Sequence record: LC739530.1
DNA length: 64,000 nt
Direction: 5' to 3' (one strand)
DNA from: Escherichia phage phiWec172
A model generated the notes under the pieces. The model was given only the letters and a program-made list of their open reading frames with translations. It made no database searches and was not told where the DNA came from. Of this stretch, positions 43,734 through 56,160 are shown piece by piece. A program made the translations under genes and the position numbers. How positions within the stretch are numbered: position 1 is the first letter of the stretch; each line of letters opens with the position of its first letter.

Positions 43734-44099
43734 TCAGTGTTCTTTTGTGTTCTTCTCAGTAATAGCTTGGAGGGCTGATACTGATTGAGCCAGATTGTTC
43801 ACACTGTCAGAGAATTTGTCAAGAGTTTTGGTAAGTTTTGCGTTTTCACCCTTAACATTCTCTAACTGAACTTTCTGGTTCTCCATCCCTAGCTGAATCA
43901 GTCTCATGTCAGACTGTAAATCACGAATAGCTGAATAGTTACTTTTGGAATAATTATCTAGCTGCTGTAACTTTGTTGTGACAGACACTTCTTGCTTACC
44001 ACTTGAAACTTGCATCGTGGTATACATCCCAATAACACTAAAAATACCAACTACAATTGCACCAATATTATTTTTAAAAGCTTCCTCTAGCCACTTCAT
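43734..44099 (-). CDS. Membrane-anchored coiled-coil protein
   Basis: TM helix IGAIVVGIFSVIGMY then coiled-coil region. Confidence 0.4.
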   Translation of the reverse strand: MKWLEEAFKNNIGAIVVGIFSVIGMYTTMQVSSGKQEVSVTTKLQQLDNYSKSNYSAIRDLQSDMRLIQLGMENQKVQLENVKGENAKLTKTLDKFSDSVNNLAQSVSALQAITEKNTKEH

Positions 44100-44294
44100 T
44101 TATTTCTCCCCCTTAAAAGCTTTTTCTAAGTTATCTACGAACTCATCATCAATAGGTGTGTCTGTTTTACTCGCAAGGTATCTTGCAAGCTTAAAGAACA
44201 CTTTCTCAATCATGTATTCACTTAGAAGGGATAAAATGAGTTTCCAGAAGAAGCTACCTAGATTTTTTAGAAGAATTGCTAGGATTGTAGGCAT
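44100..44294 (-). CDS. hypothetical small protein
   Basis: 64-aa ORF. Confidence 0.35.
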   Translation of the reverse strand: MPTILAILLKNLGSFFWKLILSLLSEYMIEKVFFKLARYLASKTDTPIDDEFVDNLEKAFKGEK

Positions 44295-44373: not shown

Positions 44374-46908
44374 TTAAGCAGTTCTTACCCAAGCCATTAA
44401 CTTGTAGAACTGGTTAGTAACACTAAATGCTGAACCAGAACCTGTACCACCAGTGTCACCACTGACTGTGTGGTTGTGAGCACCAATACCTACAGAGTGG
44501 GAATGGTCGCCAGCACCGCTAGTCCAAAAAGAGAAAGTATGACTGTGGTTCCCTGACGCATAAGTTTCATGCCCACCATTCCTATATGATACAGCATATG
44601 ATGAAGTCCTATTACCACCAGTACCAGTACCGTTCCATGCCTCAACGTAGTGAGTATGCTCACCATTTGTGCTAGTAGAACCACTACCATAGTGAGCGTG
44701 ACCACCCGTAATGTTAGTTCCCTTCGTACCATAATCAAAAGATGAAGTGGTAGCAGAGAAACTATGAGTGTGTGAAGGTAAATTACCAACATCTAACGCC
44801 ACAGAATCTGAACCACCTGTTGTAGCAACATCTGAACCATTTGCTGCTGCAATTCTAATAGTCCTACCAACACCATTGTTAAGGTACGTCCAAGTTAGAC
44901 CAGGCAGTGCTGTATTAGGGTTAACATTACTGTTAAACCACGTCACAATACCTACTGGATAGATTTTGTTAAGGTCTGTAGAGTCACTAATTGCCTGTGC
45001 AATCTTCTGGTCAGTTTCACCTTTAGTGTATGCACCGATATCTGAAGGGCTTGGCTTCAAAATGCTAGTATAATAGTGAGCAATTGTCCCAGCAACATAG
45101 CCAGATGGAGAACTATCAGAAGTCTCTGGTGTCGCAAACAACTGGATTGTTGCATTATCTGATGACTGAACCCTAGCTGTCGTAGCGTTTTGATAACCAC
45201 CAACATTGCAATAAATGTCATAATTATCACCAGATGTATTGACATAACCAACTTGGTCTACAACACCATTTGGTGAGTTTTTCCATGCAACAACATTTAA
45301 TCCTTTTGGATTACCACTCCCTGTTCTAAGAACAATTTCTGTTTTACAGGCTTGGTCAATTAAGCCAAAGTTAAAACCAGACCCCCCAAACAGTTCAATC
45401 ACTGCTGTTGCTGTACCCTGCGGCATGCTGACAGTAGCAATCTTAGCCCATTTACCACCAGCATTCTTGTTAAAGTCAGTACTTCTGACTCTCAGATACC
45501 TATTATCAGCAGATGATTTGTTATAGTATCGGTCATCAATGTTAGTCCAATCAGAAGGTTGAACTTGACCAGTAATTGTGATGCTTTTGTTAAACTGAAT
45601 ATTATTTGCTCTTAGGGAGAGTTCGGTTCCTAATGCCATTTCACGGATAGTGAAGTTTCCAAATCCGTTATGTCCCATAAACCATTTTTTGTTATTTGAT
45701 GAGTCATAACCTTGTAAGAATAGTCCACCACTATCAGTCACCCCTTGTAATTTAAGACCTTCACCATCAACCATAATAACCTGACCTTGTGTGAAGGTAT
45801 TTTTGGTGTCAATCTTAGCAAGATTACTCAAAGTCCCTGCCGGAATGTATCTAGAGTCAATGTTAGTCCAATCAGAAGGTTGAACTTGACCAGTGATTCT
45901 TACATTCTTATTTAATGCTACGCCAGACGAGTTTAAGACAATAGAAGTGCCACCCTTGTAATCATAAAATGTGATATTATCATTTGCATCACCTTTACCA
46001 ATATACCACAGTTTATTGTTTTCAACGTCTTTTGCTAGGATGAACAAAGATTCATTAACAGCTTTATTTTTTAGCATGATAGCAGCAGCATTAGAGCTAA
46101 CACTAACATAGTTGCTGAAGGTGTTTAAACCACTGAAAGTATTATCCGCAGCTAACTGTGCAAATCTCTGATTAGCAACTGTCTGAGTAAAGTATCTAGC
46201 ATCTAAGTTAGAGAAGTCAGAAGGTTGAACTTGACCATTGACAGCAAGGGTTTTACTAATCTCGACACTTGTGCCTAGAGTGATGGTTGAACCTTGTTTA
46301 CTCTCGATTAGGAAATCACGGCTACCACTAATTAGATTTCCCATAGCCCAAACTTTTTCGTTGCTTGAATCTCTACCTACGATAGCAGAGAATGCACCAC
46401 TCCCACTGGTAGGGTTTATTAGCGTTAGCTGCTCTCCGTTTACTACAATAGTCTGCTGAGAGTTAAATGTGTTTCTAGCACCAAGCTTTGCATATCTTGC
46501 ATCATTCTCTTCATTAGTTCTCATGCCAAGTTCATTAGGACTTGGTTTATTCAAAGTATGATAAACAGTTGCTGACCTTGAAGCATCTGCAATAGTTAGT
46601 TTAAGACCATTTGCGTTGATTTTAAAAGTCTTTAAAACATCCCCAACAGTAATCTCAGAAGAGCCTGTAGGGTCGAATACAGCCTTACCACCATAAAGTA
46701 ACTTAACAATCCCTAAGTCACCCGTCATATTGCTACCAGCAATCTGAACAAATCTTTCTAGTTTAAAAGATGCTAAGAAGTCTTGATAGGTCATTCGACG
46801 GTCTTCATCACCCAGCATTTCAGGTCTCTTTTTAATTCTGACATGAAGAAGGTCATCTGAACGGATTGTATCGATTGAGTTTAATTCACTCAACTTGTAA
46901 TCTGCCAT
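44374..46908 (-). CDS. Tail fiber protein with three internal repeats and His-rich C-terminal domain
   Basis: Repeats (V/I)(N/T)GQVQPSD(F/W)(S/T)N(L/I)D.RY x3; C-terminal HxH clusters ([28 protein letters not shown]). Confidence 0.65.
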
Positions 46909-46954
46909 TATAAATTTTCCTCTAAAAAGGGGCTTTCAAACCCCTGTAAAGAAA

Positions 46955-48127
46955 TTAAGCTGTTCTCTGCCATACATACAGGACGAAGGATGGCTGCTCA
47001 ATATTAACCGCCTGACCTCCACCAACACTATTCGTATTGCCACTATGTGTATGCTCAGAAGAAGAAATTGCCACAGAGCCACTATGTGTATGTGAACCAA
47101 TACCGACTGTGTGGCTGTGAGCACCAATGCCAACTACGTGGCTGTGGTTACCAGATGCACCAGATGTAACGCTAAAACTGTGTGAGTGTGCACCGTCACT
47201 AGATGTCCTTGATGTTCTCCATGCACCACCACCATCAGAGTCAGCTACAGCATTACCAGTACCATCATTTTTTCTAGGGTACACATCATGGTTGTGTGTA
47301 CCATCTGTGCTTGTGTTACCTGATACGTTGTGTGTATGGTTACCTGTTGTATTAGTCTCTTTTGTTCCATAGTCGAAAGAGTTGGTAGCCTTAGTTCCAT
47401 AGTCAAAAGCTGAAATTGACACAGTTGCATTATGAGTGTGACCACCACCGCTAAGCGACACAGAGTGAGAATGCTGAGGCATATTATTAACTGATAAAGT
47501 GACAGTTGAAGCCCCAAATACAGAGCCTGCTGGTCTTGTATCAGAGTTATAACCAACCAATGCCCTACCCTTTGAAACTAACTCCCAAGTACCTCCACAA
47601 ATTAAGTATGTAGAAGGGTTTGCAGAGTTCATGGAAAGATGGATAGTACCTACTGGATAAGAAGCCTGAACAGCCTTGTACAAGTTATTTACTGCTCTTG
47701 CTGTAGCGTACTTATCTGCATCTTCGTTATAAAGGTTAGATACTGTCCAGTTCTGAACATTACTTAGACCAACCTGTGCCTTAGTTGTATTGTGTGGGTT
47801 GCTCTTGTCCTGAATATGCTGTTGAACAAGATTATTAACCTCTTCTGAAGACATAATCTGTAGATTTGCTCTTGCCTCAGCTACATTAATAATATCTGAT
47901 AAGTTATTTGCAGCAACTAACTGAAGAGCATTAATAACATTATCTAAACCAATTTGTGTTTTAGTAACACCATGAGGGTTATTTCTTAGGCTTGAGTGTG
48001 GAGCAAGTAATTGCTCAAGAGTGCATCTCTTATCCTCAATACCCTGTTTAAGATGGAAGATATCACTAAGGTCAATTGGTAAGGCTGCTTGAGGCAAGGC
48101 ACTAATTTGAATTTCACCTACTGCCAT
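46955..48127 (-). CDS. Second tail fiber protein sharing the His-rich C-terminal domain
   Basis: N-terminal NPHxxTKxQ(I/V)GL.NV repeats; C-terminal HxH clusters and ...VWQRTA end similar to 44374..46908. Confidence 0.6.
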   Translation of the reverse strand: MAVGEIQISALPQAALPIDLSDIFHLKQGIEDKRCTLEQLLAPHSSLRNNPHGVTKTQIGLDNVINALQLVAANNLSDIINVAEARANLQIMSSEEVNNLVQQHIQDKSNPHNTTKAQVGLSNVQNWTVSNLYNEDADKYATARAVNNLYKAVQASYPVGTIHLSMNSANPSTYLICGGTWELVSKGRALVGYNSDTRPAGSVFGASTVTLSVNNMPQHSHSVSLSGGGHTHNATVSISAFDYGTKATNSFDYGTKETNTTGNHTHNVSGNTSTDGTHNHDVYPRKNDGTGNAVADSDGGGAWRTSRTSSDGAHSHSFSVTSGASGNHSHVVGIGAHSHTVGIGSHTHSGSVAISSSEHTHSGNTNSVGGGQAVNIEQPSFVLYVWQRTA

Positions 48128-48129
48128 TA

Positions 48130-56160
<8,031 letters not shown>

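Follow-up and report, generated by a model that had tools for sequence, protein, structure and literature searches.

Do the two adjacent tail-fiber genes of Escherichia phage phiWec172 share a genuine receptor-binding domain, and do the repeats within them mark places where fibers are recombined? Both genes lie on the minus strand of a 64,000-nucleotide (nt) stretch of the phage sequence (LC739530.1; hereafter the window, in whose numbering all positions are given), where they are the last two fiber genes at the end of the structural (baseplate/tail-fiber) operon. An original prediction, made from the letters alone, had placed two histidine-rich fiber paralogs at 44374-48127, and both open reading frames (ORFs) were confirmed: a short tail fiber (STF) of 390 amino acids (aa) and a long tail fiber (LTF) of 844 aa, with the expected endings and with nine and six HxH motifs, respectively. 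The 3.75-kb region is a 100% nucleotide match, end to end, to Escherichia phage phiWec174 (LC739531.1; Ounavirinae, Felixounavirus), so that sequence facts given below for the phiWec174 fibers are those of the window. The LTF and STF are the proteins named 'Tail fiber 1' (844 aa) and 'Tail fiber 2' (390 aa) of phiWec174 (PMC12548472), and correspond to gp27 and gp26 of phage Bas63 and to gp75 and gp74 of phage VpaE1; the GenBank record labels both genes merely 'hypothetical protein'. We conclude, at a probability of roughly 0.9, that they encode the short and long tail fibers of a virulent Felixounavirus, with tips of the T4 gp37 type that are diversified by module exchange.

The case for a common C-terminal module begins with composition-adjusted BLASTP, which aligned LTF residues 650-844 with STF residues 157-390 at 36% identity over 245 aa (E=8e-29), and with a local alignment score of 326 as compared to 75 +/- 11 in 300 composition-preserving shuffles (z=22.7). 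In a search of PDB chains, the receptor-binding tip of T4 gp37 (2XGF) was matched by LTF residues 703-822 (E 4.3e-45) and by STF residues 146-360 (E 2.5e-25), and the motifs YPVG..., FDYGTK, VGIGAHxHTV and ...W.RTA follow one another in both tips. The STF collar scored 64.3 bits against the Pfam family Gp10_C (PF21939; cut-off 27), with the LTF slightly under that cut-off at 25.3 bits. At least two HxH motifs were seen in no other ORF of 100 aa or more within the window. In T4 gp37 these motifs stand at 883, 915 and 929 and at 966, 980, 989 and 998, that is, on both sides of the central hairpin, as they do in the LTF (3+3) and the STF (4+5). Only the C-terminal module is shared and not the full length, so the predicted paralogy stands for this module and not for the remainder of the two proteins.

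The arrangement of this module can be read against known structures. LTF residues 721-815 align without gaps to gp37 residues 899-993 at 82% amino acid identity, and the boundaries published for T4 gp37 place the stem at 882-931 and 960-1009 and the tip at 932-959 (PMC6957217). Of the 11 T4 head residues that have been functionally mapped (PMC6957217), 8 are identical in the LTF and 3 are conservatively changed: all five glucose-cavity residues (G940, G942, G943, S947, and Y949) are kept, as are N937 and G938 of the lipopolysaccharide (LPS) patch and Y953, with the changes being K945 to R767, I951 to V773 and I933 to V755. The residues of the T4 OmpC patch are conservatively changed (K to R, I to V). 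The 33-aa hairpin insert of the STF, in contrast, bears no homology to the head of T4 when aligned with gp37. The cryo-electron microscopy (cryo-EM) study of Bas63 (2025) describes both fibers with a collar, a six-stranded HxH needle and a head, the LTF having in addition a rod of beta-helix repeat domains; the STF (gp26) measures 430 Angstrom and the LTF (gp27) 630 Angstrom, and the two occupy different baseplate sites (PMC12609058). By homology to 2XGF and Bas63, the HxH motifs would line the needle shaft and not the tip, with the head being the variable hairpin between them. The conserved C-terminal residues (...W.RTA) would then be explained by a chain that returns to the collar and does not end at the distal tip. 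Among relatives, the LTF tip varies most in the head region, and residues 754-781 are presumed from the sequence to be the receptor-contacting part. The 'metal-binding tips' of the original prediction, described there as gp37/gp12-like, are therefore better read as a needle riveted by metal that carries a small, variable head; T4 homology and the Bas63 structure suggest six-histidine, octahedral Fe2+ sites within an intertwined homotrimer. The gp37 half of that description holds. The gp12-like reading was dropped, since gp12 chains (PDB 1H6W/1OCY) were not among the PDB matches of either fiber at E<=0.01 and just a gp10-C-type collar domain was matched.

Between its N-terminal region and its collar the LTF forms a rod. 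The three GQVQPSD repeats of about 110 aa that had been predicted are indeed present as units of 107, 115 and 107 aa, each closing in GQVQPSD..D.RY (GQVQPSD at residues 225, 340, and 447). They are 33-41% identical in pairs (z=20-28 against shuffles, and still z=8-15 once the shared motif is removed). Three LTF stretches matched the Pfam family gp37_trimer (PF20744; 147.8 bits with a gathering cut-off of 21.7, E 1e-43), the best being residues 277-361; Phage_fiber was also matched, and part of repeat 2 (residues 281-346) matched the T7 gp17 fiber (4A0T) at E 3e-5. At the DNA level, the positions given in the original prediction (45547, 45868, and 46216) lie inside 59-nt copies that begin at 45536, 45857 and 46202 and are spaced by 321 and 345 nt, and the DNA likeness among the rod repeats is confined to those 59 nt. 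A fourth beta-rich domain follows the repeats. Within the genus it takes at least two forms that are unrelated to each other, of ~180 aa here vs. ~120 aa in Bas63, VpaE1, EC106 and REP8. It is this domain (24% identity to Bas63), and not the number of repeats, that accounts for the 844-aa and 784-785-aa classes of fiber. The long form also matches tail-fiber PHROGs from outside Felixounavirus (phrog_21552, 3299, 22609, and 11029).

The distribution of conserved and variable segments among relatives follows this modular layout. Counts for the LTF rest on 120 listed homologs out of ~1000, and cassette typing on 121 proteins. The LTF is conserved at residues 1-140, in the linkers (221-260, 341-360, and 441-480), over region 481-720 and at the C-terminus (801-844), and is variable in the three repeat bodies and in the head region (741-800); among 49 relatives, the STF is variable only at residues 261-320. 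Variation in the tips is thus limited to LTF 741-800 and STF 261-320. Six HxH motifs are found in 116 of the 120 LTF relatives and nine in 44 of 50 STF relatives. LTF length is 837-856 aa in 116 of the 120, and these near-constant lengths imply a constant repeat number, such that the repeats are better understood as cassette junctions than as an array that expands and contracts; in the Bas63 paper, too, the number of repeats is not reported to vary within the genus (PMC12609058).

The pairwise identities of the four variable LTF cassettes are nearly uncorrelated (r 0.13-0.27 among the 121 homologs), and in hundreds of protein pairs an identity of at least 90% in one cassette goes with one of at most 50% in another. 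Each position carries 9-21 cassette types (9-11 at the rod positions), and 82 combinations occur among the 121 proteins. Nucleotide mosaic breakpoints coincide with the conserved linkers. For example, the LTF gene of the metagenomic contig L004 is 95-100% identical to that of phiWec174 over the codons for residues 334-713 and 40-75% over repeats 1-2, while for EC106 identity is 93-100% in the STF and at the ends of the LTF and drops to 20-47% in repeat 3 and in the fourth domain. Cassettes are also found at shifted positions: nt 442-710 of one homolog (P0040, repeat 1) correspond to nt 1111-1379 of another (P0116, repeat 3) at 89.2% over 269 nt, and 17 repeat 1/repeat 3 pairs are at least 80% identical at the amino acid level. 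The comparison of fiber genes across relatives that the original prediction had proposed therefore reveals pervasive module exchange with breakpoints at the linkers.

Exchange also reaches the tips. Two metagenomic contigs, L004 and L005, carry tracts of 282 and 278 nt, respectively, that are 100% identical between STF and LTF genes and span the needle-head cassette, with the allele differing between the two contigs. These tracts are direct evidence of gene conversion between the paralogous tips, and they do not occur in phiWec174, where no recent exchange between the STF and LTF tips was detected by blastn (best DNA matches of 33 nt at 88% and 60 nt at 72%). The short DNA similarities between the two genes that do exist in phiWec174 mark the left junction of the needle-head cassette, at the position seen in L004 and L005, and its right junction. 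A further cassette resembles T4: nt 2692-2978 of T4 gene 37 (287 nt; residues 899-993) are 86.1% identical to phiWec174 and 91.6% identical to the homolog P0011, with identical boundaries. The flanks of this tract fall to 27-50% nucleotide identity, the random level in an ungapped register, and third codon positions within it are 80% identical. The T4-like version is present in 36 of the 120 LTF relatives, with a bimodal score distribution, and in 2 of 72 STF relatives. Taken together, these sequence comparisons support recombination at conserved motifs as a process that would diversify the fibers of relatives but was not seen in this genome, and so the proposed role of repeats and tips as recombination substrates stands for the relatives (mosaics, L004/L005, and the T4-like tract) and not for this phage, whose repeat number is stable. 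Such cassette swaps probably alter host range.

These data fit an arrangement in which, by homology, each fiber would be a homotrimer that combines an N-terminal baseplate attachment of its own with the shared gp37-type receptor-binding module. From the Bas63 cryo-EM structure, the N-terminus of the LTF is presumed to be a baseplate-binding domain and residues 1-140 of the STF a baseplate-binding and shaft part (PMC12609058). Each chain would descend from the collar along the needle, form the small distal head and climb back to the collar, with the HxH pairs facing the threefold axis, where they would bind metal (Fe2+ in T4) and rivet the needle. The LTF rod would be built of three gp37_trimer-type beta domains with GQVQPSD(W/F)xN(I/L)DxRY linkers, plus the larger fourth beta domain. 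Homologous recombination at the sequences that code for the linkers, for FDYGTK and for GIGAHxH (the 'His-box') could then swap rod bodies and needle-head cassettes with other phages, between repeat positions, between the two fiber genes and with T4-like gene 37, and would yield new specificities.

Published genetics indicate what these fibers are likely to bind. Infectivity of phiWec174 is lost on waaV, waaW and waaY mutants of its host (2025 J Virol, PMC12548472), so that dependence covers both LPS outer-core and heptose-phosphate genes; the isolation host is smooth and, judging by its waaV/waaW genes, has an R1-type core, and no OmpC dependence is reported (PMC12548472). VpaE1 is specific for the truncated LPS core of E. 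coli B (PMC4690856). We infer from this that the fibers recognize the LPS core. By analogy with T4, the LTF head may bind a terminal-glucose core epitope through a T4-type pocket and the STF a different feature; the glucose-pocket reading is consistent with the fact that the VpaE1 tip is very similar and the E. coli B core is glucose-terminated. The sites reported as polymorphic among the near-identical phages phiWec172, phiWec174 and phiWec177 are LTF 777 and STF 286 (PMC12548472), both of which fall inside the head/hairpin segments. An N777S difference is reported in Tail fiber 1 of phiWec174 (PMC12548472). The LTF of the window has N at this position and agrees at all 844 residues with the protein that the database lists under the name of phiWec177, and the published allele assignment is for this reason not reproduced.

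Other accounts of the same data can be weighed against module exchange between gp37-type fibers. A likeness between the C-termini that is purely compositional, arising from His/Gly/Ser/Thr-rich low-complexity tails, can be discounted almost entirely: both tails are enriched in H, G, S and T, and gaps make up 25% of the BLASTP alignment columns, but the alignment holds under compositional adjustment and against composition-keeping shuffles, and each fiber matches 2XGF independently and in the same register, with the ordered motifs common to both. Vertical descent with purifying selection could in principle explain the resemblance of the LTF needle and head to T4 gp37 with no exchange between Felixounavirus and Tequatrovirus, given that gp37-type tips are widespread in Ounavirinae and other myoviruses and that T4 function depends critically on the conserved residues (PMC6957217). 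We consider this quite unlikely, as the 86-92% nucleotide identity is limited to one sharp-edged tract of 287 nt between flanks at the random level, extends to most third codon positions and is found in just the 36 LTF relatives of a bimodal distribution, whereas the rest of the T4 and phiWec174 genomes is unrelated at the DNA level.

It is very improbable that the rod repeats are a recent and unstable tandem duplication in which slippage or unequal crossing-over changes fiber length and host range. The repeats are old, judging by their 33-41% protein identity, and their DNA likeness comes to only 59 nt at 71-85%; no variants with two or four gp37_trimer repeats were found among the 120 listed of ~1000 homologs, and neither the lengths of these homologs, nor the 784-785-aa class with its different fourth domain, nor the Bas63 paper points to a changing repeat number, even though direct 59-nt repeats at such spacings could support unequal crossing-over and one cassette has been found at different positions. 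The remaining alternative, that the two fibers are redundant and present the same tip to the same receptor, draws on the shared collar-needle module, on the needle-head cassette that is identical in both genes of the two metagenomic relatives and on the finding that phiWec174 escape mutants map solely to LPS-core genes (PMC12548472). It nevertheless appears unlikely for phiWec174, whose heads are unrelated (a T4-type head of 28 aa in the LTF vs. the 33-aa insert in the STF) and whose needles differ in length (6 vs. 9 HxH); the Bas63 fibers differ in length and in baseplate site, and the requirement for three LPS features (waaV, waaW, and waaY) is compatible with two specificities.

Several observations do weigh against the reading of these proteins as gp37-type fibers diversified by module exchange. 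The duplicated STF/LTF cassette was in no isolate phage genome record that we searched, and the evidence for gene conversion consequently rests on two metagenomic assemblies. The bodies of the rod are hypervariable though presumed purely structural. The need for waaV could stem from O-antigen attachment and not from glucose recognition. The AlphaFold2 monomer models of the tips are of low confidence: the predicted local distance difference test (pLDDT) averages 65 for the STF, with values of 40-54 over residues 270-330, and lies below 50 over residues 614-844 of the LTF. Finally, T4 gp37 requires the chaperone gp38, which is encoded beside the fiber gene. By tblastn no gp38 homolog was detected in the window at E<=0.01, so folding must differ or use another factor; nor was a gp36 homolog present in the window. 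The lack of gp38 bears on assembly, not on the fold, and low model confidence at the STF and LTF tips is as expected for intertwined trimers. In the LTF model (mean pLDDT 54) only the rod bodies and residues 485-610 reached 70-90, being beta-rich with short helices between them, and Foldseek against the PDB returned T7 gp17 (probability 0.98) and tailspike N-termini with very low TM-scores. For the STF model the same search returned nothing at E<=0.001, the gp10 C-terminus appearing at a probability of 0.6-0.7. The structure prediction that had been suggested as a check on the C-terminal domains was thus carried out and added little.

A more far-reaching idea, which we regard as possible though doubtful, is that diversifying selection acts on the rod as a combinatorial set of interchangeable beta-domain cassettes, which laterally touch host glycans or another variable partner, and that the tips are homogenized by gene conversion, giving two reaches with one specificity. 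The Bas63 paper terms the variability of the rod 'unexpected' (PMC12609058), and neither the rod as a binder nor tip homogenization is spelled out in the cited fiber literature.

Among the closest known systems is Bas63 (Escherichia phage JohannRWettstein), which belongs to the same genus and has the same gene order, the same two-fiber architecture, a gp37-like collar, needle and head with HxH motifs, and a beta-domain rod. Its LTF is 93-96% identical to that of phiWec174 at the amino acid level in the N-terminus, collar and C-terminus but is shorter (784 vs. 844 aa), with rod-repeat bodies that are 29-66% identical and a head that is unlike the T4-like head of phiWec174 (30% identity over 741-800); its STF has 7 HxH motifs vs. 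9. vB_EcoM_VpaE1, for which the homology of both gp74 and gp75 C-termini to T4 gp37 was first reported (2015; PMC4690856), is LPS-core-specific and has an orthologous fiber pair, with the LTF tip 82-97% and the STF 88-100% identical to phiWec174 at the nucleotide level for the tip. It differs in repeats 1-3 (42-70% nucleotide identity), in its short fourth domain and in being restricted to the truncated core of E. coli B type, whereas the host core of phiWec174 is R1-type in a smooth strain. Likeness to T4 gp37 lies in the collar/needle/head topology and the HxH ladders; the T4 needle, however, has 7 HxH motifs as compared to 6 in the LTF and 9 in the STF, the sequence outside the cassette differs, and the T4 fiber is a four-protein assembly whereas the phiWec174 fiber is a single polypeptide. 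Shigella phage Sf14 (Mooglevirus, Ounavirinae) carries gp52 and gp53 of 391 and 792 aa, measuring ~430 and 630 Angstrom, the long fiber having domains like those of T7 gp17 and a distal tip like that of gp37, the short fiber having a gp10-C-like domain, and no separate chaperone being encoded (PMC11821841); it represents another genus with lower identity, the Sf14 and Bas63 fibers being 52% identical (PMC12609058).

Mosaicism of this kind is familiar in other phages. Tetart and colleagues reportedly found in 1998 that motifs coding for GxHxH flank the variable adhesin segments of T-even distal fiber genes and act as crossover points (the 'His-box'). Compared with that exchange, two paralogous fiber genes of one genome are also involved here, and a second set of junctions, the GQVQPSD..RY linkers, lets cassettes change repeat position. 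Publications on VpaE1, Bas63 and phiWec174 have already described the architecture, the homology to gp37 and the dependence on the LPS core; the shift of cassettes from one repeat position to another and the gene conversion between STF and LTF add modestly to what is known of mosaic tail fibers, and current understanding is unchanged by this locus. The coordinates of the features are collected in Table 1.

Table 1. Features of the fiber locus in window coordinates, with the evidence for each.
Feature	Position	Strand	Evidence
LTF gene, 844 aa, ends ...MAWVRTA	44374..46908	-	ORF; phrog_4277 E 0; three PF20744 stretches; 2XGF E 4e-45; literature
LTF N-terminal region, aa 1-132, conserved	46513..46908	-	Mean identity 91-98% to 120 listed homologs
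LTF rod repeat 1, aa 133-239; variable body 141-220	46192..46512	-	Repeat alignment; 11 cassette types at 70% identity
LTF rod repeat 2, aa 240-354; variable body 261-340	45847..46191	-	Repeat alignment; conservation profile
LTF rod repeat 3, aa 355-461; variable body 361-440	45526..45846	-	Repeat alignment; conservation profile
59-nt DNA repeat copy 1, end of repeat 3 including GQVQPSDW linker	45536..45594		Family D1
59-nt DNA repeat copy 2, 85% to copy 1, end of repeat 2	45857..45915		Family D1
59-nt DNA repeat copy 3, 71% to copy 1, end of repeat 1	46202..46260		Family D1
LTF fourth beta-rich domain, long form, aa 462-640	44989..45525	-	AlphaFold2 pLDDT ~65-84 over 485-610; PHROG matches over 480-630
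LTF collar, aa 641-712, nearly invariant	44773..44988	-	90-100% identity; aligns to STF and T4 collar (YPVG...)
LTF descending needle, aa 713-753; HxH 713, 737, 751	44650..44772	-	Motif scan; 2XGF; T4 alignment
LTF head (tip) subdomain, aa 754-781	44566..44649	-	Ungapped alignment to T4 gp37 932-959
LTF ascending needle and C-terminus, aa 782-844; HxH 788, 802, 811	44377..44565	-	83-100% conserved from aa 801
T4-gene-37-like cassette, LTF aa 721-815; sharp edges SFDYGTK, GIGAHxH	44464..44748	-	Comparison with T4 gene 37
Left inter-paralog DNA similarity, FDYGTK-coding; pairs with 47381-47440, 72% over 60 nt	44713..44772		Family D4, blastn
Right inter-paralog DNA similarity, 'His box'-coding; pairs with 47102-47154, 77% over 53 nt	44461..44513		Family D2, blastn
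STF gene, 390 aa, ends ...YVWQRTA	46955..48127	-	ORF; phrog_2097 tail fiber E 2e-135; Gp10_C; 2XGF; Bas63 synteny
STF N-terminal region, aa 1-140, conserved	47708..48127	-	81-99% identity among 49 relatives
STF collar, aa 141-218 (Gp10_C)	47474..47707	-	PF21939 aa 154-265 E 3e-17; T4 gp10 C-terminus E 7e-6
STF descending needle, aa 219-280; HxH 219, 230, 264, 278; FDYGTK motif duplicated	47288..47473	-	Motif scan; 2XGF match
STF hairpin/head segment, ~aa 281-313, hypervariable	47189..47287	-	18-40% identity among relatives; AlphaFold2 pLDDT <50 over 281-311
STF ascending needle and C-terminus, aa 314-390; HxH 314, 328, 337, 346, 359	46958..47188	-	Motif scan; conservation among relatives
100-aa gene directly upstream of STF; Bas63 gp25 ortholog	48130..48432	-	phrog_4141 E 2e-62; Bas63 synteny

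The genes around the fibers are arranged in the order 489-aa wedge2, 285-aa wedge1, 100-aa platform, 390-aa STF and 844-aa LTF, followed by two small ORFs, and a synteny comparison showed the same order in Bas63 (gp23-gp27; bas63_0023 to bas63_0029 including the small ORFs). In Bas63 the ortholog of the 100-aa protein, gp25, serves as the platform for the LTF on the baseplate wedge (PMC12609058). The two small ORFs lie on the minus strand immediately downstream of the LTF gene (43734-44294), and both fall in PHROGs of unknown function. One encodes 64 aa (phrog_402; Pfam PF26925 Phage_PM2_Gpl on its orthologs) and the next 121 aa (phrog_4038), the latter with a hydrophobic stretch in its N-terminal part and a weak match to the DivIC coiled coil. 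The pair is kept at the same place in all relatives examined (Bas63 gp28/gp29, EC106, VpaE1, L004, L005, and L009-L011), and from their sequences the two could be lysis or fiber-assembly factors. The minus-strand operon converges on plus-strand thyA/folA. The sign of the GC skew flips at ~34 kb and again at ~44 kb of the window, the latter flip coinciding with the change of coding strand from the plus block that ends in folA/thyA to the minus structural operon.

Elsewhere in the window, a 207-aa baseplate protein (51180-51803, minus strand) ends in ...NEHTHHYYW and has an HxH motif at H188/H190, the positions of the iron-binding di-histidine reported in the puncturing-apparatus protein of Bas63. 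Among database records, MG065664.1 and MG065668.1 ('Campylobacter phage A132/A126') and one 'Staphylococcus' record match the fiber locus at 82-88% nucleotide identity and are probably mislabeled or contaminant Felixounavirus sequences. Both fiber genes are also carried by L011 (GCA_013881355.1, AAUUFU010000001.1, 89,260 bp), a complete contig of Felixounavirus size in an NCBI assembly with a protein named Shigella sonnei; this points to a bacterial genome project that included carried-over phage or a strain in a carrier state.

Tail-fiber tips decide which bacteria can be infected, and the module boundaries described here are useful for host-range engineering and for receptor prediction from sequence. 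In practical terms, they provide a map of the LTF specificity head (residues 754-781, with its T4-type glucose pocket) and of its STF counterpart (~residues 281-313), together with a map of the natural crossover points, namely the SFDYGTK and GIGAHxH coding motifs at the tips and the GQVQPSD..RY linkers of the rod.

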